The notes under the pieces were generated by a model that had not been told where the DNA came from, made no database searches, and saw nothing but the letters and a program-made list of their open reading frames with translations. Position numbers and translations under genes: made by a program. Shown here piece after piece: positions 1,862 to 29,837 of a stretch of DNA of 31,539 bases. How positions within the stretch are numbered: the first letter of the stretch is position 1; each line of letters starts with the position of its first letter. Location of the stretch: IMG/VR virus record IMGVR_UViG_3300028025_000020; one strand, 5' to 3'. Source of the DNA: a virus.

Positions 1862-2413
1862 TTATGGTCGGATAAAATAGTATCTTTCTTCGCAGTCATT
1901 GTCAGGTAAATAAATGCCCCCGAAAACTTGAACGTCCTGAGGGAAAATGGTGTCGCTTGTTGCACCACTATTCAAAAATAATGGAAATATATTAGTGTTT
2001 GCGTGTAAATAATCACGTAGTCTATTTGCGTAGTACTCAGCTTTATCCCTATACCTACGTTCAATCATTGTCATTTCGTCAATAGTAACTGGCGTTGCAT
2101 TCTCGCTATTACGACTTGCAACGCTTTTATTTAGCATTTTAAAGGTCATAGGAAGCATTGATTCGGTCAATGTGTAGTACTTTAAGCAAGGTGCAATATA
2201 AGTGTCTAAAAGGTTCGTATTGTTAGCCGATAATGTACCCGCAAATGCTTGTGTTTGCAACTCGTTATACAAGCCACTTCCAATGATATCACGAATATAA
2301 ATTTCTTGTGATTCTTTGATAGCAGATTTTAGTAATTTATCATCAACATTTTCATTGATGGGGCTATTATCTTTTAGATAAGTAGTCGATATTAAATAAA
2401 CAAAGTTTGTCAT
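1862..2413 (-). CDS. Putative head-tail adaptor/connector protein
   Basis: ORF track, 183 aa. Its start overlaps the portal gene stop (ATGA). Size and position immediately after the portal are typical of adaptor proteins. Function inferred from context only. Confidence 0.5.
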   Translation of the reverse strand: MTNFVYLISTTYLKDNSPINENVDDKLLKSAIKESQEIYIRDIIGSGLYNELQTQAFAGTLSANNTNLLDTYIAPCLKYYTLTESMLPMTFKMLNKSVASRNSENATPVTIDEMTMIERRYRDKAEYYANRLRDYLHANTNIFPLFLNSGATSDTIFPQDVQVFGGIYLPDNDCEERYYFIRP

Positions 2414-4158
2414 AATTTTTTCCTTACAAGTTTAGAGTTCCAAGCGTGACGGCAATGATTGATATGTACATCTGTGTCAGGTATTGTGTACCACCCACCA
2501 CGTTCTTTCCATACATCTCTATCAACACGGCTTGAAATCGTGTCTATTTCTGTACGTGTGTAATATCTATTTAACCCTATCAATTGACGGCAAAAATCAC
2601 GACTTGTATCTATCAATTCAGGCTCACCAGTAAAGGCAGCATCTAACCCGTACTCATATCTCAATTCGATTTGAGTGTCTACACTTTTAGAAAGTTCACG
2701 TGTACCTTTTGTAGATGTTTTTAGTTTGCCATTGTCTGAATTAATTAAGCCATCGTCAATCATTTGAGTGATTGCATCCATTACCTTTTGGGCGTCGATG
2801 TTAACGTACTTTGCAATTTCGCCTACCGTTATGCCATCGTTTGCATTTAAGATTTGTAGAATGGCAGTTTCACTTGCAGTTGCAAATTCAAACTTACAAA
2901 GTTCATAGTCATTCTTTGACACCCCACACTCAGCAAATAAATTTAAAACATCTTGGTCGCTTTGCTTTTTAGACATTGCAACTTCTTCTACAATGGCAAA
3001 ACCTAATTCTTTGCGAACTTCGTTTTTGTCAAGAATACCTTTTTCAAATAGTACAATATAATCTTGTCCAATTGGTGGCTTGTTAGTAGTTTTTATTTTA
3101 GCATCAGCCATATATTGAAACACCACATTAAAAGACGAATCCTTTATTTTTTGGCGTGGTTCAATATAAGAAGTTTGGAATAACTCGTAACCTTCTATAA
3201 TCTCATTACGTTGACCTAATGTGCCAGGTGTTGCAATTCCAAAAATAACGGGTGTGCTTACTCTATGCCCTACAAAGATTTCTTCTTGTACTTGGTCGTT
3301 CAGTTGTTGAAATTGTTTATCAAAGTCAGACGGTTGCAAGTTGGTAATTTCTGCGGGTTTTTCGTTCTGCTCATTATACATAATGATTAACCCACCACTT
3401 TCTTCGGCTTCTGCACCTTGATAGTTCTTTTTAAACCTACGTTTTGCAATTCTCATTTCTTCGGGCGTTGGTTGTCCCTTAAACATTTGAATTACTGTCT
3501 GTGCAAAAAACCCGTTTTTGATATTACTCAAATAATAGTTACCTATCTCTACGTCTATCTCTATATACTTTAAAGCACCTATATAAGATGGCAAAGGGTA
3601 TTTTCCTTGACCAGCACGATACATTTTAAACGCATATACTTGCTTATTTTCCCTTGTTGTAGGGTTAAATAAAGGATATTCAATTACGGCTTCACGGCTA
3701 TTTGACCAATCTTCGCTATAATACGCACAATCTTTGCCTAATCTAACGTTCTGAAAGGGTAAATGATACAACTCTGCTATCTCAGTTTTGGCTTTATTCC
3801 AAATAACTTCGATGTAATAGCCATCAAATAGTTCAAAATCTTGTGAAATCTTAGTATTAAAAGACTCATAATCTTCAAATGCATTAATATTTCTTAACTT
3901 ATCGAATGCCTTTGCCTTGTTTAACGTGTCATCTGCATAAATTTCAAATGATTCACCAGCAATATAAGACGATTTTTGGTTAACAATAGCGTTATGCTTA
4001 GGGCTTTTGTTGTATAAATCAATCAATTTTTGAGGGTATAAGTTATCCTCGCCAAAAGTTGTGTAACCCTTTGTTTTATTTTCTTTAAATGTAGGCAAAG
4101 AAATACCCGCAAAAGAAAGTCGGTCGAGTGCGAACTTATTGTTTTCCATTGTTTCCAA
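2410..4158 (-). CDS. Portal protein fused to a wHTH-like segment and a Mu F/SPP1 gp7-like C-terminal domain
   Basis: ORF track, 582 aa. The N-terminal ~390 aa are portal-like in size and context. Residues ~428-485 (ETAILQILNANDGITVGEIAKYVNIDAQKVMDAITQMIDDGLINSDNGKLK) look like a winged helix. The C-terminus (...RDFCRQL...RGGWYTIPDTDVHINHCRHAW) resembles the conserved end of Mu F-like head morphogenesis proteins. Confidence 0.65.
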   Translation of the reverse strand: METMENNKFALDRLSFAGISLPTFKENKTKGYTTFGEDNLYPQKLIDLYNKSPKHNAIVNQKSSYIAGESFEIYADDTLNKAKAFDKLRNINAFEDYESFNTKISQDFELFDGYYIEVIWNKAKTEIAELYHLPFQNVRLGKDCAYYSEDWSNSREAVIEYPLFNPTTRENKQVYAFKMYRAGQGKYPLPSYIGALKYIEIDVEIGNYYLSNIKNGFFAQTVIQMFKGQPTPEEMRIAKRRFKKNYQGAEAEESGGLIIMYNEQNEKPAEITNLQPSDFDKQFQQLNDQVQEEIFVGHRVSTPVIFGIATPGTLGQRNEIIEGYELFQTSYIEPRQKIKDSSFNVVFQYMADAKIKTTNKPPIGQDYIVLFEKGILDKNEVRKELGFAIVEEVAMSKKQSDQDVLNLFAECGVSKNDYELCKFEFATASETAILQILNANDGITVGEIAKYVNIDAQKVMDAITQMIDDGLINSDNGKLKTSTKGTRELSKSVDTQIELRYEYGLDAAFTGEPELIDTSRDFCRQLIGLNRYYTRTEIDTISSRVDRDVWKERGGWYTIPDTDVHINHCRHAWNSKLVRKKL

Positions 4159-4759: not shown

Positions 4760-4980
4760 TATGCTGGGAATGGTGGTGCTGGTTTAGGTATGTATTCGCC
4801 CGTTGGCAAATCTAAAATAAATGCCCACTCAGTACCTTCAATTTGTGATTTGTCTTGGTCAGATAAAAACAAAAACCATACATCGTTAATGTCTTGTACG
4901 CAATTGAAAAATTCATATGGCGTGTAAAATTGACCTTGTACTTGGTCATATTGTTCGGTTGTTAAAATGTATCCTATCAT
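4759..4980 (-). CDS. Hypothetical protein
   Basis: ORF track, 73 aa. Tightly coupled to both neighbours. Confidence 0.55.
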   Translation of the reverse strand: MIGYILTTEQYDQVQGQFYTPYEFFNCVQDINDVWFLFLSDQDKSQIEGTEWAFILDLPTGEYIPKPAPPFPA

Positions 4981-6395: not shown

Positions 6396-6401
6396 TATAA
6401 G

Positions 6402-6429
6402 TATATTAGCAAATAGCGTAATTTGTTAC
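6402..6429 (-). promoter_or_regulatory. Late-type bipartite promoter motif P4 (GTAACAAATTA-N9-CTAATATA)
   Basis: Minus-strand read: GTAACAAATTA CGCTATTTG CTAATATA CTTATA ATG. Same architecture and 9-nt spacer as P1-P3. Confidence 0.55.
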
Positions 6430-6432
6430 AAT

Positions 6433-6458
6433 AAAAAAGGGATGACCTAAGCCACCCC
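6433..6458 (-). terminator. Rho-independent terminator after the capsid gene block
   Basis: Minus-strand RNA GGGGUGGC-UUAG-GUCAUCCC (8 bp including 2 G.U pairs) followed by UUUUUU. The G.U pairs become A.C mismatches on the plus strand, so the hairpin is strand-specific. Confidence 0.6.
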
Positions 6459-6484
6459 CCACAGATATGAAACAAGACAGAAAT

Positions 6485-6991
6485 TTATATTCCTAATGTA
6501 GTTACTACAGAAGACTGCAGCTTGTATGGTGCTTCGATGTCCATTGATTGAAGTGTAACTTCATAACCAGTTGAATCACCAAACGCAGCACCAGTATTTG
6601 CAACCATTGAACTAACATCACAACCTGACTCTTTACCTACCAACCAATACTCATCGTTATTAGTTTTTACGATACAGAACACACGTCCCTGAGCTAATAA
6701 TTTTAACTCGTTACGCTTTGTTGTTGACAATCTACGCAATTTGAAAGCTACGTCACATTGGTTGTACACCGTGCCGTTTTCAACGCTTACGTTAGTTGTG
6801 TTAGTCATTGATGCAGTCGCCTTAGGGATGTCATAGAAATATACATCCCCACTCGCTACTGATGTTGCCGTAACTTCACCACTTGCAACTGTAAAGCCAG
6901 TTTTAGCCCAGTTAACAAGATAGATAGATTTAACGCCACCGACTGCATCTTTGCAATCAAGGGCAAAACTTTGAGAAATTAAACACGGCAT
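6485..6991 (-). CDS. Virion protein encoded directly after the major capsid gene (tail tube-like or decoration; function uncertain)
   Basis: ORF track, 168 aa. Sits between the capsid gene and a terminator, which suggests high expression. Confidence 0.5.
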   Translation of the reverse strand: MPCLISQSFALDCKDAVGGVKSIYLVNWAKTGFTVASGEVTATSVASGDVYFYDIPKATASMTNTTNVSVENGTVYNQCDVAFKLRRLSTTKRNELKLLAQGRVFCIVKTNNDEYWLVGKESGCDVSSMVANTGAAFGDSTGYEVTLQSMDIEAPYKLQSSVVTTLGI

Positions 6992-11126: not shown

Positions 11127-13844
11127 TTAAGGTACTATCACAAAATATTTTGTGCCAGTTGATATGTATTGATGTGTTTTTTTGTCGGTGGTAATTGTGT
11201 TAGTTGTTGCATCGTCTATTAAAATAGAACCATCACCAGCCGTTACTGTTATTGTATGTCCCGAGCCTATTTTTTTAACTACAAATATTTTGCCTTTATT
11301 TGCTGATGGGTCAGGTAAAATTACAGATATGTTGCCAGTCATATTGCACACTATTAAATAGTCATCGTATAAAGATGTGTAAGGGCTATCGGTGTGGTCA
11401 ATTTCAATTACATTACCACCACAACTATAGGCACCCATCTGTGGGAAATTTTCTACATAGAAACGATTTGATTCTGTGATTGAATAAGTATCGCAATTTA
11501 TCGCCGTTACACTTTCAAAATTAATTGGGATGTCTACTTGTGTACCACCTAAAATAGTGTTTGCAAATCGACCTTGCGAAACGTGGTCATTTCCTACCGT
11601 GATATTGTCTTTTGAATCTAATTCGCTATCTCCAATGTTTACGCCCCCAGTAGTTACGCCCGTGAATCCAATTGGTTTGCCGAATGGGTATGTATCGTTT
11701 AATACATCTTTACCACCTACACCGATATTTTTTTGATTTGTAGTCGAGGGTTCGTAATAGGTGACCAAAAGAAATTCACATAGATACACGCCTTCTTGCA
11801 AAGGGTTGTAATCACTTACCTTGTTTAATCTCCAATATTGTCCCTCAAAGAAATATAAGTCTTTAAATTGAATGTTAGCCCATTGATACGGATTGATACG
11901 GAAATATCCTTTGAATACCTTAGAATTTTTGTCGGTGATTTCCTTAATTGTTTTAAACCAATAAACATTAACTAAGTTTTGGTTGCTGAATTTAAGTCCT
12001 TTGTCTGCTAAAATGTAATTCGACATACCAAAATTTAGGTCAAATTGCATATTGTCGGTATCGTCAATGTGAAGCGTTAAAGGATATTTGTTTTTATTTG
12101 GTGTGCCAGTTAACGTAGTGTTGTATAATTCGTATGGCGTTGTGTTTTTTAAGCCATTATAATATAAACACCTTAATTGTCCTTTGTCATTATTCCCATT
12201 TAAAATAATAGAATAGTATCTATTGCCTGAAGATAATAACATTGTAGGTGCAAATGTAATTTCTATTTTCTTTTCTTGTTTTACAAAGTCATTGTCTACT
12301 CGCACAACCCTTTCACCATAAATTTTACTTGTGCTTTGCTTATATTCTTTATTGTAAAAATCTTCGCCCTCTTTAAATGTAAAAATATAAGGGTTTGCTT
12401 CAAGGTCGCCCATTGGAACTATTTGCACGTTTTGGGAATAGTCAACTAAATTTGTCCAATCTTGTGTTGAGCCATTATAGAAATCGTCACGTGGTACAAA
12501 TCTAAGTTTCTTAGGGTTGTCCATATCTTGTTCAATATACAAGTTAAACATTTTAACAAAGTTTAAAAGCATATCCTTTTGCGTATAATCACCACTAAAG
12601 AATAAACCAAAATCTATTGCGTTACCATAAGCAAATTGATTTGCTGCCGATTGATTATAGAATTTAGTATCGTTATATAAATCTACAAAGGGATTTCCTG
12701 AACCTATATTTAAAAACTTAAAATTCAAATATTTTACTTGCACATAATCACCAGCAATTAATTGAATGGTTTGCACATCTGTATAATCAAAATTCCAAGC
12801 CGAATCCGAACTATTATCTGAAACTCCCGAAAATGTTTTTACAAGTACATTATTTTTAAAAAGTCCAAACGTTAAAACTCCATAATCTGGTGTGGGTATA
12901 GGCACACCTACTGATGCAATGGCTTTTACTTTTAAAAAGAAATCAAAATTGGCTGCCGTTGGTGATACATAACGATAAGTTGTAGTGTTAAAATTACCAC
13001 CAGTATCAAAATTCCCACCAGTAGAATCGTTGTTAAATGTAATAAGGTCGTTTGGATTTATAGCAATTACTCCAGCATTAAACCCAGCTTGGAATAACCT
13101 TTGTTGTATTGCGTTATCGTCACTTGTAAAACCATAATTTGTGTATGGTATAATTAAACGCTTAAATCTTGATGTCGTAAAAAAAGAATCACTTGTATAT
13201 TGGTAACCAGTAGTTGACATTATTTTGTCAATTATAGTTTTAGCATATAAGCACGGCACGTGGTCGTCAACACGCCATTGGCTTGTGTTGGTATTTTGTG
13301 AACCAAACTTGTTTAGCATTTGTGCGTAAACATAACCCTCACCATACGCAAACGCTTGTGAACCTCCATTTTTTACAATTGAAGTGTCCCAAGAATTAGT
13401 CACATTGGTATCGGTTAATGTATGGTTGTATTCGTCAAAGTTTAACTCAGTTAATTTAGCATTGCCAAGCGTTGTAAACAAGTCAGCAGTTTGTCCGTGT
13501 AGTGAACATTCATATTCAATAAAATCGTGGTCTAAGACGTTTATTTGAATCAATCGTATAAACCCCCTTAACTGCTCGAATCCGTCGACCAATACAACTA
13601 CATCAGCTTTTTTGTTTGGGTTAAAGTTTGGTGCAAATTGCCCACTCCCTAAGACCGTGTGTTCAACTTCAAATATACCACCGAATAAAATGTTGTTTGT
13701 TTTTGTGCCTGGTATCTTTGCAGTCTTTGACCAATCACTTGACCTTTGCTCAGGGTTTTTAATATCAGCAATTGAACGGGTTATAAGCAAGTCGAAATCT
13801 TCGCTTAAATCGACCAGCGTATTATTTACGAATAAATTTATCAT
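11127..13844 (-). CDS. Large tail/host-recognition protein
   Basis: ORF track, 905 aa. The largest gene, Asn/Thr/Gly/Tyr-rich beta-type sequence, overlap-coupled to the 379-aa gene. Confidence 0.6.
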   Translation of the reverse strand: MINLFVNNTLVDLSEDFDLLITRSIADIKNPEQRSSDWSKTAKIPGTKTNNILFGGIFEVEHTVLGSGQFAPNFNPNKKADVVVLVDGFEQLRGFIRLIQINVLDHDFIEYECSLHGQTADLFTTLGNAKLTELNFDEYNHTLTDTNVTNSWDTSIVKNGGSQAFAYGEGYVYAQMLNKFGSQNTNTSQWRVDDHVPCLYAKTIIDKIMSTTGYQYTSDSFFTTSRFKRLIIPYTNYGFTSDDNAIQQRLFQAGFNAGVIAINPNDLITFNNDSTGGNFDTGGNFNTTTYRYVSPTAANFDFFLKVKAIASVGVPIPTPDYGVLTFGLFKNNVLVKTFSGVSDNSSDSAWNFDYTDVQTIQLIAGDYVQVKYLNFKFLNIGSGNPFVDLYNDTKFYNQSAANQFAYGNAIDFGLFFSGDYTQKDMLLNFVKMFNLYIEQDMDNPKKLRFVPRDDFYNGSTQDWTNLVDYSQNVQIVPMGDLEANPYIFTFKEGEDFYNKEYKQSTSKIYGERVVRVDNDFVKQEKKIEITFAPTMLLSSGNRYYSIILNGNNDKGQLRCLYYNGLKNTTPYELYNTTLTGTPNKNKYPLTLHIDDTDNMQFDLNFGMSNYILADKGLKFSNQNLVNVYWFKTIKEITDKNSKVFKGYFRINPYQWANIQFKDLYFFEGQYWRLNKVSDYNPLQEGVYLCEFLLVTYYEPSTTNQKNIGVGGKDVLNDTYPFGKPIGFTGVTTGGVNIGDSELDSKDNITVGNDHVSQGRFANTILGGTQVDIPINFESVTAINCDTYSITESNRFYVENFPQMGAYSCGGNVIEIDHTDSPYTSLYDDYLIVCNMTGNISVILPDPSANKGKIFVVKKIGSGHTITVTAGDGSILIDDATTNTITTDKKTHQYISTGTKYFVIVP

Positions 13845-14980
13845 AAACGTTGAACCTTATCTACAAATGACAAATCGCATTCAATTGTCAAATTAAAAAC
13901 TTTGTCGTTTAGCAATGTTTTTACTGAATAGTCGGTGTTTGTGATGTTAATGGCTTTTAAAACACCATCGTCTAACAACCAAATAGAGGGTGAAGCTACC
14001 AACTCTTTGAGCCATACACTTTCTTCTTCGGTTATCCAATTGGAATTGAGTGTAATTTTTTGCATTATTTCGGTGTTGTAGTTACTTGTACTTCTTGCAC
14101 TTGTCTCGTAGGAATAACTTGAACCTGATAAACTGTATTGTGTTTGTTTGTAGGTTTTTCTTTGTATAGTAAAGTTATCCTTTCTGACCCTATTAAACCG
14201 AAATGACTCAATAGCCCCGTATCTGTTGAGGAAGTAAACGTCATTATTTGCGTACTTTGTGCATTCATCTTTTATGTCTATTCTGTATGTTTCACTTGTT
14301 GAGCCACTACCCTTTGCTTTGACCTCTAAATAGGTTGCACCACTTGCTGGTATAATTGGGATTCGTAAAACTGAATCCGTGATTCCACTCAACAAAATTA
14401 TTTGCGTTGTGGCTGCTGGGTAAGTTTTAATTTCTACAGTCAAAGCGTTACCACGCCAAAAGTAAAGCCAATCCTTTTGACCTTTATAAATTGTCTTTGA
14501 ACGTAATGATGTTAAAAACTCAGCATTCTTTGAAGTGTTAATTTTGTAGTCGTTTTCGTCAAACGAAACAAAGTCAATAGGGTTTAAAGCCATATTATAC
14601 GCAGTTAACCCCGTGACGTTGGTTGCACCACTAACTTCGATAATTGGTGAAGTAGAACTCGTTGAATATTCGTAACCAAAATTTACTTTGTAGCCTATGT
14701 AACTATTCGGACATCCACTGACAGACGTATCGTCAATGTCCCAATCAAAAGTTACAAAGTTTTCAATTAACCTACCAATGTTAAATACACTTTTGTTGGT
14801 GCTATTTGGATAGATAGGTGCTTTTAAGCGTGCAATTCGTGTTGTATTTTGAAATACATCGGCAATAAATTTAAAGTTTGGCTTAGTGTAAATAGCACTA
14901 TCACTCTCAGTAATGACAAAATTTAAATCATTATATGCTGGTGCGTTATCGTCGGGTTTTTGATTGACTGTTATACTCAC
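13841..14980 (-). CDS. Tail structural protein (first gene of the late block; GTG start)
   Basis: ORF track, 379 aa. The start codon read at 14980-14978 is GTG, 5 nt downstream of a CTAATATA box. Confidence 0.6.
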   Translation of the reverse strand: MSITVNQKPDDNAPAYNDLNFVITESDSAIYTKPNFKFIADVFQNTTRIARLKAPIYPNSTNKSVFNIGRLIENFVTFDWDIDDTSVSGCPNSYIGYKVNFGYEYSTSSTSPIIEVSGATNVTGLTAYNMALNPIDFVSFDENDYKINTSKNAEFLTSLRSKTIYKGQKDWLYFWRGNALTVEIKTYPAATTQIILLSGITDSVLRIPIIPASGATYLEVKAKGSGSTSETYRIDIKDECTKYANNDVYFLNRYGAIESFRFNRVRKDNFTIQRKTYKQTQYSLSGSSYSYETSARSTSNYNTEIMQKITLNSNWITEEESVWLKELVASPSIWLLDDGVLKAINITNTDYSVKTLLNDKVFNLTIECDLSFVDKVQRL

Positions 14981-14985
14981 ACTTA

Positions 14986-15013
14986 TATATTAGCACTTTG
15001 TGAATTTTGTTGC
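14986..15013 (-). promoter_or_regulatory. Late-type bipartite promoter motif P1 (GCAACAAAATT-N9-CTAATATA)
   Basis: Minus-strand read: GCAACAAAATT CACAAAGTG CTAATATA TAAGT GTG. Confidence 0.55.
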
Positions 15014-15020
15014 TTTGATG

Positions 15021-15054
15021 AAAAAACCCCCATACTTGGTTAAAAATATGAGGG
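15021..15054 (-). terminator. Rho-independent terminator T2
   Basis: Minus-strand RNA CCCUCAUA-(12-nt loop)-UAUGGGGG (8 bp including one G.U) followed by UUUUUU. Confidence 0.6.
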
Positions 15055-15075
15055 TCAAAGCACGATTGAAAGAAC
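15021..15075 (-). ncRNA. Candidate ~55-nt promoter-proximal transcript, unit 2 (from the E4 box to T2)
   Basis: The box TATATTTG (15080-15087) lies within a 14-nt string GTGTATATTTGTAT that is identical to the E2 promoter. It is followed by ATTGTTCTT...TTTGAC and terminator T2, with no ORF. Confidence 0.3.
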
Positions 15076-15103
15076 AATACAAATATACACTAATTTATGA
15101 CAT

Positions 15104-15129
15104 AAAAAAACCCCACAACTTGTGTAGGG
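15104..15129 (-). terminator. Rho-independent terminator T1
   Basis: Minus-strand RNA CCCUACA-CAAGU-UGUGGGG (7 bp including one G.U) followed by UUUUUUU. Confidence 0.6.
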
Positions 15130-15162
15130 CTAAAAGTCAAAACTTTTGTATTTTAGAAGAAC
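15104..15162 (-). ncRNA. Candidate ~58-nt promoter-proximal transcript, unit 1 (from the E3 promoter to T1)
   Basis: CTTGCATATT...-N20-TAGGTTTG (15167-15198) resembles early promoter E1. It is followed by ATTGTTCTT...TTTGAC and terminator T1, with no ORF. It is paralogous to unit 2, offset by ~87 nt. Confidence 0.3.
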
Positions 15163-15166
15163 AATG

Positions 15167-15198
15167 CAAACCTAAACTAAATTTCTTAAATATGCAAG
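15167..15198 (-). promoter_or_regulatory. Host-type promoter-like element E3 (CTTG-N20-TAGGTTTG)
   Basis: Minus-strand GCTTGCATATTTAAGAAATTTAGTTTAGGTTTG. The segment TTGCATATT-AA-AAA-TTT aligns with promoter E1. Confidence 0.4.
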
Positions 15199-15300
15199 CA
15201 CCATTGATTCAAACGTGGTACATTTTTGTAAATCTTTGCTAAATTCTTTTTGTTTACCAACGTAAAATGCAACGGTGTTTAAAAACTCAACAATAGGCAT
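15172..15300 (-). CDS. Possible small ORF (42 aa), hypothetical
   Basis: Hand-translated: MPIVEFLNTVAFYVGKQKEFSKDLQKCTTFESMVLAYLRNLV*. It overlaps the E3 promoter-like element. No supporting motif. Confidence 0.2.
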   Translation of the reverse strand: MPIVEFLNTVAFYVGKQKEFSKDLQKCTTFESMVLAYLRNLV

Positions 15301-15347
15301 CTGTAAAATATAATCCCATTTATCACGTTGCCCTTTACAAATTGCGT

Positions 15348-15908
15348 TTACGAGTTCAAACCATCCTTGTATGCCATTGCTTTTGCCTTGAGATTCTCCA
15401 CCATCTGACTCAAATAAGTTTGGGTAGCGTCCAACAATTTCGGATAAAGACGAGAAAAAAAAAGCGTGTAGCCGTGTGCAATCTGATACGGCAAATGTAA
15501 AAACAAGTTACTGACTTCTTCAAATTGCAAACCTAAGTTTTTGATTTTCTTTGGTCGACCAAATATGTTTACTTCTTCACTCATCATTGCCATTATCCTA
15601 TGCAAATTTGGAAGCATGTCGTCGCTATTAAATTGTTGAAGTGATATGAAGTGTTGTCCTTGCATTTCCATTGCGTTAGGAATCATTCTAAATCGCCTAC
15701 CTTTAATTTTAAATCTAAGCTGAATAGTATCTTCAAACTTTAAATTATCCATTATTGTATTGAACCGATTGAATAAGTCGTAAACTTTCATTTCTTCGAC
15801 ATCGTCAATATCTCTACCATCTACTATGCAAATAGTGTGAATGGCTTTTTCTAAAGGTGAATAGTGGTCTATCTCCTTTAATTCTTGAATATGTTTAATT
15901 GTTATCAT
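15348..15908 (-). CDS. Hypothetical protein downstream of terL
   Basis: ORF track, 186 aa. Its ATG overlaps the terL stop. Confidence 0.6.
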   Translation of the reverse strand: MITIKHIQELKEIDHYSPLEKAIHTICIVDGRDIDDVEEMKVYDLFNRFNTIMDNLKFEDTIQLRFKIKGRRFRMIPNAMEMQGQHFISLQQFNSDDMLPNLHRIMAMMSEEVNIFGRPKKIKNLGLQFEEVSNLFLHLPYQIAHGYTLFFSRLYPKLLDATQTYLSQMVENLKAKAMAYKDGLNS

Positions 15909-17095
15909 TATGCGAATGCAAATATACCTTTTTTATTATGTTTTTTACAATCTACTGCAAGTGCTAAGGACATAACACAGTCATCGTGCAGTCCACTTGG
16001 TGCAGAATATTTTACTCCCGTTCGGGTGTATTCGTACTCGATATTCTCCAATTCGTACCCGATAGGTGATTCAGGGAATGCAATTGAATTTTGTTGTATT
16101 TCCATAACTAACCCCTCAATAAGTTGTTGTTTACTTTGTGATGTGAATCTAAAACCTTTTATGTTAGGTAATAAGCGTTGTAGATTCTCAACTATAGGAT
16201 CTCCAACACCGGTACTATCACAGTATGCTGGTATTCTGCCAACTACATTAACAATTTTTTGTTGTGTTTGTTGCCAATCGGCTTGGAATCTATCCACATA
16301 ACACACTCTATTAACGCTATCAAGTCCTATTATCACAGTCCAGTCCGTGTATTTTGCTAAGTCAATACCAAACGCAATAGGTGTACTATTGCTAATAGGT
16401 GAATAACATCTACGAATATTGTCTATTCCAAAAGGATTTGACTTATCGTCACCAGGTTCTGCAAGATATAACTCTTTAAATACAAACTCTGGTAAATCTC
16501 GTTTCGCTTGTTCTATTTCTTCAACGTCTAATATACCTTCTTTTGCAGCATCGTATGCCGTTATCTTAAAGAACTTATAGTCAGGTTCACCAAGTCTTGC
16601 ACGTTCACCAAGTTTATAAAACCAATTCTTTTTACCTTTAACGTTACCAATTAGTTTACACTTGCCTTTTGTAGCTGTGAGTGTAGAACGTAAAGCAAAC
16701 CAACTTTCTTCACGCATACGTGACGCTTCGTCAACTACTGCTGCGTATACATCGTCTCCGTACAAGTTATCGGGCTTTTCACCTGACTTAAATTCAATCC
16801 TTGCACCATTTGGTAAAACAAGTGTTAACTTACTTTCGTTTGAAATAAAGAAGTCTTTTACATTGACTTGTGTTTTCATACGTCTGAAAGCGATTTCAGC
16901 TTGTTGATACACTGGTGCAACCCACCACACAGATTGATTCTCTTTTAATTGTAGGGCTTGTTCAAACATCCAAATAATATGACTTGCAGTTTTACCGCAT
17001 TTAGTTGCTGCTGCCGTTATTGTGTAACGTTCTGGAGCGTCTAAAATTGCTTTTTGGTAAGACGTGACAAATGGTCTATTATAGGTTATTTGCAT
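15908..17095 (-). CDS. terL: Terminase large subunit
   Basis: ORF track, 395 aa. Walker A-like AAATKCGKTAS, Walker B-like AAVVDEASRM, and a C-terminal nuclease-like region with conserved acidic residues (GIDLAKYTDW..., LHDDCVMSLALA). Confidence 0.8.
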   Translation of the reverse strand: MQITYNRPFVTSYQKAILDAPERYTITAAATKCGKTASHIIWMFEQALQLKENQSVWWVAPVYQQAEIAFRRMKTQVNVKDFFISNESKLTLVLPNGARIEFKSGEKPDNLYGDDVYAAVVDEASRMREESWFALRSTLTATKGKCKLIGNVKGKKNWFYKLGERARLGEPDYKFFKITAYDAAKEGILDVEEIEQAKRDLPEFVFKELYLAEPGDDKSNPFGIDNIRRCYSPISNSTPIAFGIDLAKYTDWTVIIGLDSVNRVCYVDRFQADWQQTQQKIVNVVGRIPAYCDSTGVGDPIVENLQRLLPNIKGFRFTSQSKQQLIEGLVMEIQQNSIAFPESPIGYELENIEYEYTRTGVKYSAPSGLHDDCVMSLALAVDCKKHNKKGIFAFA

Positions 17096-17253
17096 AGAAT
17101 TTCAATAGTTACACGTTCTATATTTTCAAATAATATTACAACGTGATAATCTTCTTTTAAAGATAAATCATTCAAATATTCAAAAGTTCCGTCACCTATT
17201 TGTGTTAAAGGAACTCTTATTACTGCAATTGATTTTCTTTTTCTTATAAACAT
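17086..17253 (-). CDS. Small hypothetical protein (55 aa), not in the ORF track
   Basis: Hand-translated: MFIRKRKSIAVIRVPLTQIGDGTFEYLNDLSLKEDYHVVILFENIERVTIEILCK*. It overlaps both the glycosyltransferase stop and the terL start, and fills the only gap there. Confidence 0.4.
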   Translation of the reverse strand: MFIRKRKSIAVIRVPLTQIGDGTFEYLNDLSLKEDYHVVILFENIERVTIEILCK

Positions 17254-18260
17254 AATGTTTTTAAAAGTTCGTAGCGTGTTTGGTTAATGCTTTTTAAATT
17301 GTGATGTTGGTTGCAGTATTCTGTATTCAATTCACCAATGCTTAGTTTAGCCATACGGCAAAGACTATCATACCACGACTGCTCTGTATTGTAAGAAAAA
17401 ATAACTCCTTTGTTTCCCTCGTGTAGCGTATATGGTTTGACATTTGATACAATGATAGGTAAATTATAGGCTGCTGCTTCAACTATCTTTAATTCGCTTT
17501 TATATTGGTTGAAATTGCTTTCACATAATGGTGCAATACAAAAGTCAAATAGTGAATAAGAAGTTCCATAGTCTGTCGGTGTAGTTCCTCGAATAGTTTT
17601 AAACCAATCAGGACGATTAAAAATAGTTTCTCCCGTTATAGTTTTCTCGCACATTTGCCATTCGTGGCTTTCTGTGTGATATCCCGCCATATAAAAGATA
17701 GCGTCGTTTTCTTCACAGAATCTTTTAACGCTATTACCTACACGTTTTAAATCTTCAAGGTGAGTGATACCACCAACCCAACCGATAGTCAACTTCTCAT
17801 TCTTTGCTTTCTCAAAATTCCATTGGTCTTGGGTTAAATCTAAAGCATTCGGTAAAATAGTAATGTTGCTATTTATCTCTTTTACTTTCTCAGCAAGTAT
17901 TGAAGTTGAACAAGTGATATGAGTAGCGTTGTATATTGCATCCTTTGTCGCATTCTTAATCATTTGTTTGTACACCCTATATGCTGGATTTGATTTAGGC
18001 ACAACCCAATAGTCATCTACATCGCAAATTGTAGGTATGTTTAACGCTTTTAATTTTTCAAATATGTTATATTGTGCAACTGAAATCCATCTATTGAATA
18101 TAACTACATCGTAAACGCTAAAATCTATGTTAATCCACTCAGGTGGTTTTTGTGATACGTCTACTTGAATGTCGTATTCTCTTTGCATTGCAGCGTACGG
18201 GGTGAATAGTCTGTGAAAGCTCACCCCACTTGCTGAATCCATTAATACTAATATTCTCAT
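17244..18260 (-). CDS. GT-B fold glycosyltransferase (GT1/GT4-like)
   Basis: ORF-track frame, but I place the start at ATG 18260 (MRILVLMDSASG...), which forms an ATGA overlap with the upstream small ORF. Motifs GWVGGITHLEDL and SELKIVEAAAYNLPIIVSN match the C-terminal nucleotide-sugar-binding region of GT-B enzymes. Confidence 0.65.
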   Translation of the reverse strand: MRILVLMDSASGVSFHRLFTPYAAMQREYDIQVDVSQKPPEWINIDFSVYDVVIFNRWISVAQYNIFEKLKALNIPTICDVDDYWVVPKSNPAYRVYKQMIKNATKDAIYNATHITCSTSILAEKVKEINSNITILPNALDLTQDQWNFEKAKNEKLTIGWVGGITHLEDLKRVGNSVKRFCEENDAIFYMAGYHTESHEWQMCEKTITGETIFNRPDWFKTIRGTTPTDYGTSYSLFDFCIAPLCESNFNQYKSELKIVEAAAYNLPIIVSNVKPYTLHEGNKGVIFSYNTEQSWYDSLCRMAKLSIGELNTEYCNQHHNLKSINQTRYELLKTLCL

Positions 18261-18651: not shown

Positions 18652-18875
18652 CAGAACGGCAAATCGTTTTTAGGTTTAGGTACTGCAACATAATGCGTCG
18701 CTTTGCTTTTTTCGTTTGGCGTTTTAAGTTTGCCAACTCTTAACTTTACATCACCATATTTGTTGACTTCAAGTTTTCCACTTGCAATGGCTTGGTTTAG
18801 TTTTTCGATGTTAATTGATACGTTGTTTCCGTACTGGTCTTCCCAACCATTCCCGAGATAAATTGTTTCTGTCAT
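18651..18875 (-). CDS. Small protein with an SSB-like C-terminal tip (...PKPKNDLPF*)
   Basis: ORF track, 74 aa. I read the last codons directly as AAC GAT TTG CCG TTC TGA. Confidence 0.6.
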   Translation of the reverse strand: MTETIYLGNGWEDQYGNNVSINIEKLNQAIASGKLEVNKYGDVKLRVGKLKTPNEKSKATHYVAVPKPKNDLPF

Positions 18876-19237
18876 TGTTTTAAATTTAATGTAATTGTTA
18901 TTGGTTCTTCTGTTTTAATATTATTGTCTACTGTCTCTTTTGGTTTTCCGTGTACCCTTGTAACTAAAGTCTCAAGATTGAATAATGAGTTCTTGTCGTG
19001 CGCTTTAACCAATGAACCAGCAATGATCTGTTCAATGATTGTATATTGACCAGTCTTGTCTTTGTCTATTGCTTCAAGTTCTTGCCTATTCATTGCCATC
19101 ATATTCATATACGTTTGGTTTACATCGTCTTTTGAATACCCAAGTTCTTTAAGTTTGGTAACTATTTTTTTAGGTCTACCATTAGGGTTTGCATTGTTTC
19201 CTGGTAGAAATTTCTTCAAGTTTTGTTCGTTTGCCAT
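18872..19237 (-). CDS. terS: Terminase small subunit-like protein
   Basis: ORF track, 121 aa. The N-terminal GNNANPNGRPKK motif is common in phage small terminases. Located next to the HNH gene and upstream of terL. Confidence 0.5.
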   Translation of the reverse strand: MANEQNLKKFLPGNNANPNGRPKKIVTKLKELGYSKDDVNQTYMNMMAMNRQELEAIDKDKTGQYTIIEQIIAGSLVKAHDKNSLFNLETLVTRVHGKPKETVDNNIKTEEPITITLNLKQ

Positions 19238-19243
19238 TCTCGA

Positions 19244-19513
19244 TTATTTCACGTTTTTTTTATTGTACTTCATAAAATTCAAATGTATTTCTTTTAACAT
19301 CTCTTTGTGTTGTTTTTTATCACCGTATTGAACGTGGTGACCTCTACAAAGACACATTAAGTTTTCAATCGTGTCTTCTTTTTTAGTGCCACCCATTCCA
19401 CGACATTCTATATGGTGAATATCGTTACCAGCATTGCCACAAATTTCACACGGAATCCAATCAGTTAAGTGATAGCCGAAATAGTCCATATAAATCTTTG
19501 TGTGTTTTTTCAT
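19244..19513 (-). CDS. HNH endonuclease
   Basis: ORF-track frame. I prefer the start at ATG 19513 (MKKHTKIY...), which forms an ATGA overlap with the methyltransferase stop. Motif CEICGNAGNDIHHIECRGMGG...NLMCLCRGHH. Confidence 0.75.
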   Translation of the reverse strand: MKKHTKIYMDYFGYHLTDWIPCEICGNAGNDIHHIECRGMGGTKKEDTIENLMCLCRGHHVQYGDKKQHKEMLKEIHLNFMKYNKKNVK

Positions 19514-20586: not shown

Positions 20587-20801
20587 TTGTTAGTTGTTGT
20601 TGAAGTGTGTTCACTTTGTTGTTCAAATATATCAGTTCTTTGTTCTCCTGAAATTTCCTTGCTTTGTAGCCCATTGTTATCAGTAGGCAAACAAAAATGA
20701 TTTTTAATAAATTCATAATCTTTCGTTATTTGGTGTTTAATTGTATTATCAATGTCGTGGTATTTCATAAGACGAAAATAAAATGCTTGAAGTTTATTCA
20801 T
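20583..20801 (-). CDS. Hypothetical protein
   Basis: ORF track, 72 aa. Coupled to the sigma gene and the membrane protein gene. Confidence 0.5.
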   Translation of the reverse strand: MNKLQAFYFRLMKYHDIDNTIKHQITKDYEFIKNHFCLPTDNNGLQSKEISGEQRTDIFEQQSEHTSTTTNK

Positions 20802-21294
20802 ATTCGTTTATGATTTGTCTTTTTATGTCTTTGATTACCCTTAGTACTTCACGTAATGTTATTTTGGTTTTACGATGGATTGACCTTGCCGATTCACCAT
20901 TCGACCACATTGTAAAGATTTCCCGTTCGTACCATTTGTTTTTGCTTACTACGTTTTCAATCAGTTTATATTTGTTTTCCTTTTCGATGGCATCGTCTAT
21001 TGTGTTTAAATATTCTATCTGTACATTTTCAATATCAAATAGTCCTATCGGCTTCATAACGTCGTAGAACTTTTGACGTGGTGTTGAACTTTGCGACCAC
21101 ATTATTTTAATGCAAAACAATTTAATATAACCATCGTTGTAAACCTTTATTAATTTGTCATCTGGCATTTCACATAAAATAAGTAAAAGATGTTGAGCTA
21201 AATCGTCGTGGAATAAGGGCGATATTGTTTTTGACGCCTTATAAAGCCATTCTGATTTTGCAACTTCTATCAGTATATTATTTTTGATGTGCAA
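20794..21294 (-). CDS. ECF-like sigma factor (regions 2 and 4)
   Basis: ORF track, 166 aa. The start codon read at 21294-21292 is TTG. Region 2-like HDDLAQHLLLIL...YIKLFCIKIMWSQ. Region 4 HTH-like YEREIFTMWSNGESARSIHRKTKITLREVLRVIKDIKRQI. Confidence 0.6.
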   Translation of the reverse strand: MHIKNNILIEVAKSEWLYKASKTISPLFHDDLAQHLLLILCEMPDDKLIKVYNDGYIKLFCIKIMWSQSSTPRQKFYDVMKPIGLFDIENVQIEYLNTIDDAIEKENKYKLIENVVSKNKWYEREIFTMWSNGESARSIHRKTKITLREVLRVIKDIKRQIINEYE

Positions 21295-21854: not shown

Positions 21855-23036
21855 TTAAAATAAATTTATTTGTCTTTGTGAATAATCCTTATAAGCATCT
21901 GCTGAAAAAACTACAATATTATTTTCATATTCAATATATTCTCCAATATATTTATAAGATTTTGTTATACTTTCTTTTCTTAATTTCATACCATTATCTT
22001 TACCATCTTCTTTTAATTTATTATTTGTTTTTTTTATGCTTTCTATATTATTATTCTCTACAACTAATTTCCAATATTTTGTATTACGTTCCATTCCCAT
22101 AAATAAAGATGGATTACTTGTTTTAATATATAAATGTTTTTTAATTGATTTATACATTGCGCCAAAATAATTTAATACTTTTATTCCAATACCAAGTCCT
22201 TGATAATCAGGTAAAATAACCAAACGACTGATTCTAAAAGCATCTGATATTGTACCCGATGGCATTGGCAAAATAGCAATAAATCCAACTGGTTTATCAT
22301 TCCAAGTTATACAAAATGACTTTGCTGCTTTATTCAATTCTTGTGTTAAATAATGATGTTGTTTGAATATATTCCAAGTTTCATATCTGCATCGAAATAT
22401 CTGAAAGTCAATTTGTGGTCTTGATTGCCGAAGATAGTCGTGTTTTTCAACACGTCCCTTTAATGGTGAATATGTCCAATCAGGTAATAACCATTCCATA
22501 ATATCAAAATGACAAGATGCTAAAACAATTTTTTTATTCATTTTTCTAATATATTTTTGTAATGAATAAGACATAGATTTTGCGACATCTCTATCTACAA
22601 CACTTGTAAATTCATCAATTAATATTACATCATTTTCTTTTGCACTTGCAATTTTATATGCTAATTCAGCACGATATTGTTCTCCATTAGATAATAAATG
22701 AAATTGACGTAACCAAGTAGGAACAGAAGATAAACCAATTGCACTTAATAATAAACAAGCATCTTTTGGTTCTAAAAAATCAAAATTAGAAATTAGTGCT
22801 TTTTCTTTATCAAATTCAATTTTATTAATATCTCCAAATTGTTTTAATAATGATGTTTTGCCAGTGCCTGAACCACCATAAATTACCCCTATATTCCAAG
22901 TAAAATTTTTACATTCTCCAAAATTAATTGGTATTTCTACAATTGTTTCTTCTTTGTTTTGAATGTCAAATGAATCATAAATATAATTGGTATATTTATC
23001 ATTTTGAATCTTTTGTTTTAAAATTAATTTTCTCAT
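21855..23036 (-). CDS. ABC-type ATPase (single NBD) fused to a GNAT acetyltransferase domain
   Basis: ORF track, 393 aa. Walker A GGSGTGKTS (54-62), signature-like LSNGEQ (115-120), Walker B/D-loop VILIDEFTSVVD (137-148), H-loop LASCH (172-176), GNAT motif A RLVILPDYQGLGIGIKVL (271-288). Markedly lower GC than its neighbours. Confidence 0.7.
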   Translation of the reverse strand: MRKLILKQKIQNDKYTNYIYDSFDIQNKEETIVEIPINFGECKNFTWNIGVIYGGSGTGKTSLLKQFGDINKIEFDKEKALISNFDFLEPKDACLLLSAIGLSSVPTWLRQFHLLSNGEQYRAELAYKIASAKENDVILIDEFTSVVDRDVAKSMSYSLQKYIRKMNKKIVLASCHFDIMEWLLPDWTYSPLKGRVEKHDYLRQSRPQIDFQIFRCRYETWNIFKQHHYLTQELNKAAKSFCITWNDKPVGFIAILPMPSGTISDAFRISRLVILPDYQGLGIGIKVLNYFGAMYKSIKKHLYIKTSNPSLFMGMERNTKYWKLVVENNNIESIKKTNNKLKEDGKDNGMKLRKESITKSYKYIGEYIEYENNIVVFSADAYKDYSQRQINLF

Positions 23037-27815: not shown

Positions 27816-27819
27816 GATA

Positions 27820-27850
27820 CAAATATACACACGTTTTCTATATATGCAAA
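27820..27850 (-). promoter_or_regulatory. Host-type early promoter E2 (TTTG-N19-TATATTTG, 4 nt from the ATG)
   Basis: Minus-strand ATTGAAAATAAAGTTTGCATATATAGAAAACGTGTGTATATTTGTATCATG. Matches the Bacteroidota -33 TTTG / -7 TAnnTTTG consensus and aligns with E1. Confidence 0.6.
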
Positions 27851-29058: not shown

Positions 29059-29589
29059 TCATTTAGCTGCAATCAATAACTTTTTGTTTTCAGCACTTAT
29101 AGTGTACTTGCGTTCGATGTCTTCTAACAAACCACCAGTTTGTAAGTGTTCTTTTGCTTTAAGCCAGTTAGAATGCTTTGGTGTTAGTTCTTCTTTGCTT
29201 AAAGGTTTACTTTGTACGTTGCCAGTTGCACTATTCCCGTCGTCGTCGTCGTCAATATTTAGATTTAAAATACTTGAAATAGAATAACGACGTGCATAAC
29301 TAACTGCCGAGCCGATTTGTTGTGGGTTGGTTGCATCTTTACAAACTATGTCGTACACGCTTTCTAAAATTTGACCACTATCTATGTGAATTAATTTAGT
29401 TACAACACAAGTGTTTATAACGGGCTGCACAATAACTAAACCATTCTTTTTAAGAATAGGGGTGATAACATTTAAAATGTGTGGTAACGTCGCATACTTT
29501 GAACCTTTGAAAAATGGGTTGTTTGCGTCTTTGCTAATCTTTGGGCATTCAGCCTGAAAATTTGCTACTGATAAAAATAGTTCTTTCAT
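29059..29589 (-). CDS. erf: ERF-family single-strand annealing protein
   Basis: ORF track, 176 aa. NPFFKGSKYATL...ILK...GL and IGSAVSYARRYSISSIL match conserved ERF blocks. Acidic run DDDDDG follows the core. Confidence 0.75.
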   Translation of the reverse strand: MKELFLSVANFQAECPKISKDANNPFFKGSKYATLPHILNVITPILKKNGLVIVQPVINTCVVTKLIHIDSGQILESVYDIVCKDATNPQQIGSAVSYARRYSISSILNLNIDDDDDGNSATGNVQSKPLSKEELTPKHSNWLKAKEHLQTGGLLEDIERKYTISAENKKLLIAAK

Positions 29590-29837
29590 ATCTTGTTTTG
29601 TTTTTTAAGTTCTAATACAATTTCGGTTAATCTTCTGTTTCCCATATCATCAAATAAATGCCAGTCAATGGCTTCGTCTCGTAGCCCGTCTTCATCGTGA
29701 CTAACAAACGTATAAGGAATTAAATCTTCAGGGTATTCGTCAATTATTAATTCTTGTACAACTTCAGCGTCGTATTCAAAATCATAATCACCATCACACA
29801 AATGACATTTAGCAAGGGAAAAAACAACGTAACTCAT
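29586..29837 (-). CDS. Small highly acidic protein
   Basis: ORF track, 83 aa. By my count 21 D/E versus 7 K/R. Confidence 0.6.
   Translation of the reverse strand: MSYVVFSLAKCHLCDGDYDFEYDAEVVQELIIDEYPEDLIPYTFVSHDEDGLRDEAIDWHLFDDMGNRRLTEIVLELKKQNKI

Follow-up and report, generated by a model that had tools for sequence, protein, structure and literature searches.

Organisation of the packaging–structural junction

The virus record IMGVR_UViG_3300028025_000020 is a stretch of 31,539 nucleotides (nt), referred to here as the window, and it holds two tandem promoter-to-terminator units between its packaging genes and its first structural gene. Both units lie on the minus strand, and each comprises a housekeeping-type promoter box, a short body and a hairpin followed by a T-run. 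They may be paralogous genes for small RNAs of approximately 55 nt. The window (31.5 kb) amounts to approximately a whole phage genome, has a G+C content of 33% and carries all of its genes on the minus strand. Its source is an uncultured Bacteroidota phage from a freshwater phage group, and its life style looks lytic. No close cultured relative was found by megablast and blastn searches against 50,697 phage records, and the large terminase (TerL) shares at most 33% identity with that of any cultured phage. Comparisons were made with approximately 35 related contigs from IMG/VR, JGI, ENA and Logan, which show 56–97% protein identity around the junction.

An earlier, sequence-only reading of the window had described two such units, placed them approximately 87 nt apart and called them homologous. 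The coordinates and elements are as described, the start-to-start spacing is 87 nt, and the two units align with 61 identities over 94 columns. The alignment score of 18 exceeds the maximum reached in 2000 shuffles (12) and among 1075 other genome windows (13). Tandem Repeats Finder did not report the pair as a tandem repeat, because the copies are too diverged. The same reading took the region to be a non-coding gap of 367 nt. This was an overestimate: positions 15347–15172 (176 nt) belong to a conserved open reading frame (ORF) in the −1 frame, and the true gap is 14981–15171 (191 nt).

Promoter boxes and predicted transcripts

In Bacteroidota, the housekeeping sigma factor has TAnnTTTG as its −7 box, and promoter mapping in Flavobacterium psychrophilum places this box at −12 to −5 (PMC9723704). 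Both units carry a perfect match to this sigma-A box. TAnnTTTG is kept in 34 of 34 distinct unit copies, with changes confined to the two free positions (GG, GT, GA, TA, TC and CA), and in unit-1 copies the box is always TAGGTTTG or TAGTTTTG. The first bases of the unit-1 box in the window are also the TAG stop codon (15174–15172) of the upstream −1 frame ORF. In a distant clade, the box lies beyond the stop codon with no overlap between the two, which indicates that the box itself is the kept element.

The coding strand holds 36 TAnnTTTG boxes, and the intergenic ones precede early genes. For the early boxes at 27827 and 30034, the −12 to −5 rule puts the transcription start site (+1) exactly on an ATG, suggesting that the early mRNAs are leaderless. 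Early boxes also occur in tandem pairs on the minus strand (30061/30034 and 27875/27827). The unit-2 box lies in the 14-mer GTGTATATTTGTAT, which had been called identical to an early promoter, E2. This holds exactly, as the 14-mer occurs twice, at 15077–15090 and 27817–27830, against 0.03 occurrences expected. The parallel claim, that TTGCATATT upstream of unit 1 aligns with early promoter E1, proved superficial: this sequence forms the −33 region in unit 1, and the box end and transcript start at E1.

A TTG trinucleotide is found 18–20 nt upstream of the box in unit 1 and in the single-unit clade. Studies of F. johnsoniae promoters reportedly give a consensus of TTG with a spacer of ~19 nt. 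The TTG of unit 1 falls within coding sequence, so its conservation says little.

The predicted RNAs (Table 1) were derived by setting +1 five nt past the G of the box, following the published geometry (PMC9723704). The predicted unit-1 RNA begins GUUCUUC, and the predicted unit-2 RNA begins GUUCUUUC.

Conservation and identity of the units

Every relative recovered has at least one unit at the packaging/structural junction, and a counterpart of the predicted unit-2 RNA occurs in each of them. Two units are present in the clade of the window and in a distant lineage, L553 (61–69% protein identity), where one of the two, unit 1′, is homologous to unit 1 and the stems are compensated. The occurrence of two units in both groups indicates that the duplication is old, and the single-unit genomes may be losses. 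One relative (L050) looks like a recombinant of a unit-1 box and a unit-2 body. As a separate observation, four relatives (L043, L044, L567 and L568) contain an 85-nt insertion within the unit body.

The first eight transcribed positions, GTTCTTTC at +1 to +8, are conserved in most lineages, well above the flanking sequence, and several lineages carry AATCTTTCC, GATTTTCC or GTTTTTTC instead. A TTTGAC block, put forward in the sequence-only reading as an element shared by the units, did not survive comparison with the relatives, most of which have TTTAA or TTTTAA at this position.

A covariance model built from the units scored unit 1 at 51.5 bits and unit 2 at 65.5 bits. A pattern scan of IMG/VR with the hairpin and loop returned matches in this phage family only. 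The model found no unit in phages whose DnaB is 46–53% identical, although those loci may not reach the junction. No Rfam 15 family reached its gathering threshold anywhere in the window; the best sub-threshold hits scored at most 20 bits (E at least 0.68). Protein-coding explanations were also considered. Small ORFs inside the units (30–43 amino acids (aa), TTG starts) were rejected, as their frames are broken by insertions and deletions between relatives. An 80-aa plus-strand ORF at 15000–15242 was likewise discarded; its frame is broken in the same way, and it spans a unit that is missing from single-unit relatives.

Terminator hairpins and RNA structure

Both hairpins claimed as terminators were called by a terminator scan. 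The predicted fold of unit 1 has an energy of −13.5 kcal/mol (z −2.2) and that of unit 2 an energy of −15.8 kcal/mol (z −3.6). The minus strand of the 31.5 kb holds one other convincing terminator, at 6460–6437. A U-run of T6–T8 follows the hairpin in all relatives.

Covariation analysis, which the sequence-only reading had proposed as a check, revealed that the stem covaries, with double changes at 5 of 10 pairs. Across 33 distinct sequences, 94% of stem cells are paired, compared with 83% in shuffles and 41–58% in slid controls. Double-change cells number 34 against 10.6 expected, and the covariation score was reached by none of 500 shuffles. The terminator stem is the only conserved structure, and the 5′ ~30 nt of the units has no consensus structure. 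Two further candidate structures were rejected: a closing helix, UGCUUUGA/UCAAAGCA, around terminator 2 occurs in the window clade only, and the relatives do not share a hairpin that surrounds the GTG start.

Table 1. Coordinates of the units, their predicted products and other features of the window.
Feature	Position	Strand	Details
Unit 1	15174–15104	minus	Box TAGGTTTG 15174–15167; 37 nt; hairpin CCCTACA/TGTGGGG 15129–15111; T7 15110–15104
Unit 2	15087–15021	minus	Box TATATTTG 15087–15080; 25 nt; hairpin CCCTCATA/TATGGGGG 15054–15027; T6 15026–15021
Predicted unit-1 RNA	15162 to ~15104	minus	+1 G15162; 5′ GUUCUUCUAAAAUACAAAAG; hairpin 15129–15111; U7; 56–59 nt
Predicted unit-2 RNA	15075 to ~15021	minus	+1 G15075; 5′ GUUCUUUCAAUCGUGCUUUGA (unstructured); hairpin 15054–15027; U6; 52–55 nt
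Candidate −33 element of unit 1, TTG	15195–15197	minus	20 nt upstream of box; inside coding sequence
Candidate late promoter	14981–15019	minus	ATCAAAGCAACAAAA 15019–15005 (contains AAC); 16 nt after AAC; TAATATAT 14992–14985; 4 nt; GTG 14980
Second junction	6396–6487	minus	Near-box TAAATTTC over stop codon; CTTGTTTCATATC; terminator 6460–6437; T6; GTAACAAAT-N-TGCTAATATAC-TTAT-A-ATG
166-aa protein	20794–21294	minus	Predicted fold of an extracytoplasmic function (ECF)-type sigma factor (sigma2 + sigma4); model predicted local distance difference test score 82
erf translation-initiation region	29577–29606	minus	ATG 29589–29587 overlaps TGA of upstream 83-aa ORF; Erf assigned by PHROG
−1 frame ORF	15172–15507	minus	−1 relative to 186-aa ORF 15348–15908; open from 15507; frame translation
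T9 run	15455–15463	minus	C-TTT-TTT-TTT-C; overlap of both frames; kept in all relatives aligned; candidate −1 slippery site
Early genes, in transcription order		minus	Amidase, Erf-like annealing protein (29059–29589), exonuclease, DnaD-like loader, DnaB helicase
Next block		minus	Small ORFs and glycosyltransferase
Packaging block		minus	Large terminase 15908–17095, then 186-aa ORF 15348–15908
First structural gene	13841–14980	minus	379 aa; GTG start; no assigned function
Structural module after unit junction		minus	379-aa protein, 905-aa protein, tape measure, protease, capsid-region genes, portal

Candidate late promoter and sigma-like protein

The units had been said to stand directly upstream of a late promoter, P1, and this is consistent with a candidate late promoter that follows terminator 2. 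The sequence between this terminator and the GTG start codon of the 379-aa gene has the layout ATCAAAGCAACAAAA-N12-TAATATAT-N4-GTG. The 15-mer ATCAAAGCAACAAAA is invariant in nearly all relatives, and adjoins the gene even where 90–280 nt have been inserted after the terminator. The 4-nt spacer varies freely, and the late box and GTG are fixed. On the minus strand of the window, TGCTAATATA occurs exactly twice, each time just after a terminator, 4–5 nt before a start codon and with AAC 16 nt upstream; the second copy lies at 6411–6402, in a bipartite motif that covers 6396–6436, and its site is conserved in relatives. The motif can be written as AAC-N16-TAATWTAY-N4-start codon, or as G(C/T)AACAAA-N13-TAATATA(T/C)-N4-start codon. 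Its box-N4-start geometry is that of the leaderless early promoters. From its sequence, the motif is a candidate promoter for leaderless mRNA, in one case with a GTG start, and the mRNA of the 379-aa gene is probably translated in a leaderless or near-leaderless manner. A scan of IMG/VR with the 15-mer was too unspecific to be of use (120 unrelated matches). A longer late-promoter pattern matched 12 contigs only in the metagenome collection, all from the same family.

The second junction, which follows a 168-aa gene, resembles a third, degenerate unit at 6437–6487 on the minus strand (compare CTTGTTTCATATC with GTTCTTTCAATC). No target was found for its motif. Among the relatives L274–L353, one (L349) has a full TATATTTG box at this junction, and a more distant group has GGTTCTTGATTCATAGG. 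The more distant phage group carries TATTTTGT-ATAG-ATG at the position of the second late motif, which matches the TAnnTTGY promoter class of F. psychrophilum (PMC9723704).

The phage encodes a 166-aa protein, present in all relatives, whose top structural matches in the PDB are the ECF sigma factors SigL, SigH, sigmaE and AlgU. Its model superposes on region 4 of SigmaE with a root-mean-square deviation of 1.5 Å over 61 residues (probability 1.00). Pfam did not detect the protein, a fragment of which carries the label 'Mor family transcriptional regulator' in one source. ECF promoters typically have an AAC element upstream. On the strength of the predicted fold, the late promoters are probably read by this ECF-like sigma factor of the phage. 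No Pfam or PHROG match to the Q family (PF03589, PF06530 and PF06323) or to an N-like protein was found among the ~45 proteins scanned, many small ORFs being unassigned.

Several kinds of insert are found between the terminator and the late promoter in relatives. Some relatives (L035/L036, ~4850–4975, and L560, ~17250–17400) contain a ~125-nt tRNA-like element that has an acceptor stem of 7 base pairs and a T-loop reading GGTTCGAAxCC, and that is interrupted by a large insertion. ARAGORN does not detect this element, and the Rfam tRNA model gives 16.5 bits, below threshold. Inserts at this position in L043/L044, L029, L048, L263 and L268 include tandem GAGGGTGCTATT repeats in 2–3 copies, a stretch of ~60 nt that is conserved (TACAAAATGTATGGTTTATGCTACATTAAAGGCAC...), and the palindrome ATATCGTTGA/CATCAACGATAT, which abuts the late motif.

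Candidate targets of the predicted RNAs

An unfiltered search of the window with the covariance model returned, as its third-best hit, the plus strand at 29577–29606 (19.9 bits, E 0.18). This best non-self hit is antisense to the start region of erf. Unit 2 and the erf start are complementary at 20 of 24 positions, AUG included. The site ranks first among antisense sites genome-wide, and also among 55 start regions when these are compared by duplex energy.

Both loci are present in eight genomes. Aligning unit 2 with erf of the same genome gave scores that were reached or beaten in 0–19 of 1000 shuffles in 7 of the 8. The core AGUUCUUUCA(U) is invariant and pairs with (A)UGAAAGAACU in most of the eight. 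The flanks of unit 2 differ between clades, to some extent in parallel with the sequence upstream of erf, as seen in the window clade (CA-ATCGTGCTTT against erf CATATCTTGTTTT), in L048 (CATATGTTTTTTTTC against erf CATA-GTTTATTTTC) and in L038 (CCATATTTTTT against erf CATATTTTTT). Furthermore, the diagonal of the duplex-energy matrix is best or tied-best in 6 of 8 rows. Codons 2–5 of erf are invariant at synonymous sites (16 sequences), and another relative (L567) contains a perfect 12-nt antisense of AACAAGATATGA.

No conserved target was found for unit 1. Its best sites in the window are 19262–19296 (p ~0.005) and a 13-mer in the tape-measure gene. The region 19262–19296 shows complementarity at 30 of 37 positions to the 5′ portion of the unit-1 RNA, in this genome only. 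As a side observation, this minus-strand region has a TACATTTG box inside the 3′ end of an HNH-like ORF, 38 nt upstream of a DUF5681 gene (18872–19237).

Neighbouring genes

The 186-aa ORF that precedes the units overlaps the −1 frame ORF introduced above. The protein sequence of the latter is conserved in relatives of 72–97% identity (WFELVN..C.G.R..WD.IL.M..IEFLNTV.FY), where synonymous changes are numerous, and gene callers mark a 41–42-aa remnant of it in L559 and L568. Judged from its sequence, the T9 run in the overlap looks like a site of programmed −1 frameshifting or transcriptional slippage, which would yield a joined product of ~245 aa. The arrangement can be likened to that of the G/GT tail-assembly chaperones. 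The 0 frame of one relative (L555) ends just before the T9 run. Neither the 186-aa ORF nor the frameshift fusion has a match in PHROG, Pfam, NCBIfam or PDB sequences.

Elsewhere in the window, a 393-aa gene at 21855–23036 (minus strand; PHROG 11143, E 8e-135) is missing from 8 of 8 related loci checked. The DnaB and DnaD modules share at most 84% identity with those of any relative, which indicates that the early region is mosaic. The 582-aa portal protein (2410–4158, minus strand) has a winged-helix/MarR-like domain near residues 424–480. No tRNA or tmRNA was found in the window.

Interpretation and alternative explanations

The favoured reading, which is held to have an even chance of being correct, is that the two units are paralogous small-RNA genes of approximately 55 nt whose terminators also insulate the late promoter. 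Host RNA polymerase would start at G15162 and G15075 and stop in the U-runs, to give RNAs of ~55–59 and 52–55 nt. The same terminators would also end the upstream operon (terminase and 186-aa ORF), so that the cassette resembles a small RNA of a 3′ untranslated region (UTR) with its own promoter, and they would shield the AAC-N16-TAATATAT-N4-GTG promoter from read-through. The most speculative step is that the single-stranded 5′ end of the unit-2 RNA, GUUCUUUCAAUCGUGCUUU, may pair with the erf mRNA, AAACAAGAUAUGAAAGAAC, encoded 14 kb upstream; by masking the AUG, this pairing would reduce the synthesis of Erf. The predicted unit-1 RNA has a different 5′ sequence. A more specific, joint proposal is tentative, and rather more likely to fail than to hold: that the units represent a regulatory RNA family of Bacteroidota phages, in which the unit-2 RNA would block, in trans, the erf start codon of the phage that encodes it and the boxA-like core at the 5′ end could engage NusB/S10, as a decoy or against the RNA's own termination.

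Several points weigh against this reading. The start sites and 3′ ends of the unit RNAs are predictions from promoter and terminator sequences, and unit 2 of the window clade has no clear −33 TTG, with a T-run in its place. The late promoter rests on two sites and their conservation, and the sigma assignment comes from a predicted fold with weak Foldseek E-values (at least 0.017). For the pairing with erf, a genome-wide shuffle test of unit 2 gave p ~0.05–0.09, 45% of shuffles did as well in duplex energy on the 55 start regions, a result that is not significant, and a cross-genome permutation test gave p 0.03–0.12. The units of L041 and L044 fit the erf region of another clade better than their own, which is compatible with mosaic genomes and is no evidence for pairing, and L029 fits erf poorly. 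Start regions in Bacteroidota are typically A-rich, and U-rich RNA pairs with them readily. Both sites proposed for unit 1, 19262–19296 and the tape-measure 13-mer, were rejected, as they are not conserved in clade mates with an identical unit 1. Finally, an early-class promoter implies that the RNA would be made alongside its proposed early target, which suits dampening rather than a timed switch. Regulation of erf by an antisense unit-2 RNA is thus suggestive, a reasonable lead and not a result.

The sequence-only reading had offered two explanations, paralogous small RNAs or an antitermination gate, and the present evidence favours the former: the boxes, the covarying stem, the conserved unstructured 5′ end and the lack of an ORF or an Rfam match support it. 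A gate modelled on lambda PR′-tR′, here considered improbable, would make the unit promoters the true late promoters, with a phage factor that lets polymerase pass both terminators as well as the one at 6460–6437, and with GTTCTTTC as a loading or pause site. Such a gate would account for the conserved order of promoter and terminator directly upstream of ~15 kb of structural genes, for the conservation of the first eight transcribed nt, for a further strong terminator within the structural module and for the absence of a consensus sigma-A box between terminator 2 and GTG. It does not sit well with the conserved bipartite promoter-like motif that follows each terminator, 4–5 nt before the next start codon, or with the possession of an ECF-like sigma factor: if that factor reads the late promoter, the structural genes need no antitermination. 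Furthermore, no Q-family or N-like match emerged among the ~45 proteins, and relatives insert 90–280 nt of unrelated DNA, tRNA-like elements included, between the terminator and the late motif. The second junction has a similar motif before its terminator, and a good box is absent there in most relatives.

A second alternative, given a minor share of the probability, is that these are ordinary terminators at the end of an operon: the hairpins would close the packaging operon and shield the late promoter, and any short RNAs would be functionless by-products. The coding strand has three strong terminators only, all at junctions before a late-type motif, and any terminator is expected to show stem covariation; the want of a statistically firm target for either RNA favours this explanation. 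A terminator, however, needs neither a promoter nor conserved upstream sequence, whereas the box is perfect in all 34 copies, across clades with 56–97% protein identity and while shifting relative to the stop codon. Both copies of the old duplication keep their boxes, and positions +1 to +8 are conserved well above their flanks. That 5′ end invites one further explanation, which seems very improbable: the 5′ GUUCUUU would copy boxA of the host rRNA leader, the NusB/NusE (S10) site, and serve as a Nus decoy or recruit factors that confer resistance to termination. Among 98 Bacteroidota rrn leaders (loci L354–L472, several classes), AGTTC(T/A)TTGA(A) recurs ~90–190 nt before the 16S gene. This motif is presumably the Bacteroidota rrn boxA, judging by the consensus of E. 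coli and B. subtilis; a literature search for Bacteroidota boxA was unproductive. The 7-mer GTTCTTT is common to the phage and host motifs, and occurs only twice on the phage coding strand, once exactly at the unit-2 +1. In every phage copy, though, a C stands in the place of the host's purine (GTTCTTTC against GTTCTTTG/A), the motif reads AATCTTTCC, GATTTTCC or GTTTTTTC in several lineages, and, unlike a boxB, the hairpin leads into a U-run that is conserved, with no N-like protein detected among the proteins scanned. Paralogous small-RNA genes remain the favoured explanation of the two units.

Relation to known systems

The predicted RNAs resemble type I 3′-UTR small RNAs with their own promoter, such as DapZ and MicL of enterobacteria, in having a promoter at the end of the upstream coding sequence, a shared terminator, a short length, and a single-stranded 5′ seed followed by a hairpin. 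They differ in that the cassette belongs to a phage of Bacteroidota, is tandemly duplicated and stands directly before a promoter of a different class.

Lambda PR′-tR′, which gives the 6S RNA (194 nt) and is controlled by Q, likewise places a host-type promoter, with an intrinsic terminator close behind it, right before the late structural genes. Unlike that system, the phage units are tandem, specify a ~55-nt RNA and are accompanied by no Q-like protein that could be found, and the candidate late promoter lies downstream of the terminators and probably goes with an ECF-like sigma factor of the phage. The small RNA StxS of Stx (Shiga toxin) phages derives from the short PR′-tR′ transcript (PMC12197685); as in that case, the terminated RNA of the phage units may itself regulate. 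P22 sar is listed among phage small RNAs in the same source (PMC12197685). Together with lambda OOP and with c4 of P1/P7, which acts on ant, it shares with the predicted RNAs a short length and an unpaired region complementary to the ribosome-loading region of a phage mRNA. However, sar and OOP are cis-encoded with perfect complementarity, and c4 is processed from the operon of its own target; the unit-2 RNA is encoded 14 kb from its proposed target, and the predicted pairing is imperfect (~20/24).

The rrn boxA and lambda nut sites are alike in that GUUCUUU at the 5′ end of the phage RNA equals the core of the Bacteroidota rrn motif, with a hairpin ~15–25 nt downstream. They are unlike in that the next base in the phage is always C, several lineages have a degenerate form of the motif, and the phage hairpin, with its U-run, is a terminator. 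The surroundings of the units recall T4 gp55 and SPO1 gp33/34, where a small phage sigma-like protein is likewise found with a distinct AT-rich late box; the present phage differs in the ECF-like fold, the AAC-type upstream element, a +1 on the start codon and a terminator cassette before each promoter.

To our knowledge, nearly all known phage-encoded small RNAs belong to Proteobacteria and Firmicutes phages and prophages, and a 2025 review lists none from Bacteroidota. The predicted element would add to a kind already known, that of phage small RNAs that carry a promoter and a terminator of their own; it matches no Rfam family, and no counterpart is described from Bacteroidota phages.

Implications

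As far as we know, Bacteroidota have neither Hfq nor Shine–Dalgarno-led initiation, and an antisense RNA placed on a start codon would thus be a simple and effective means of control. If the RNAs are by-products, the finding shrinks to well-insulated operon boundaries. The junction offers a small candidate RNA of ~55 nt for which promoter, seed and terminator are all defined, together with natural one- and two-copy variants and a specific candidate target in erf. More broadly, the window offers a readable transcription plan for this freshwater phage group, in which early genes would be expressed as leaderless messages from sigma-A promoters, terminator cassettes mark the junctions between modules, and the late promoters are probably read by an ECF-like sigma factor.

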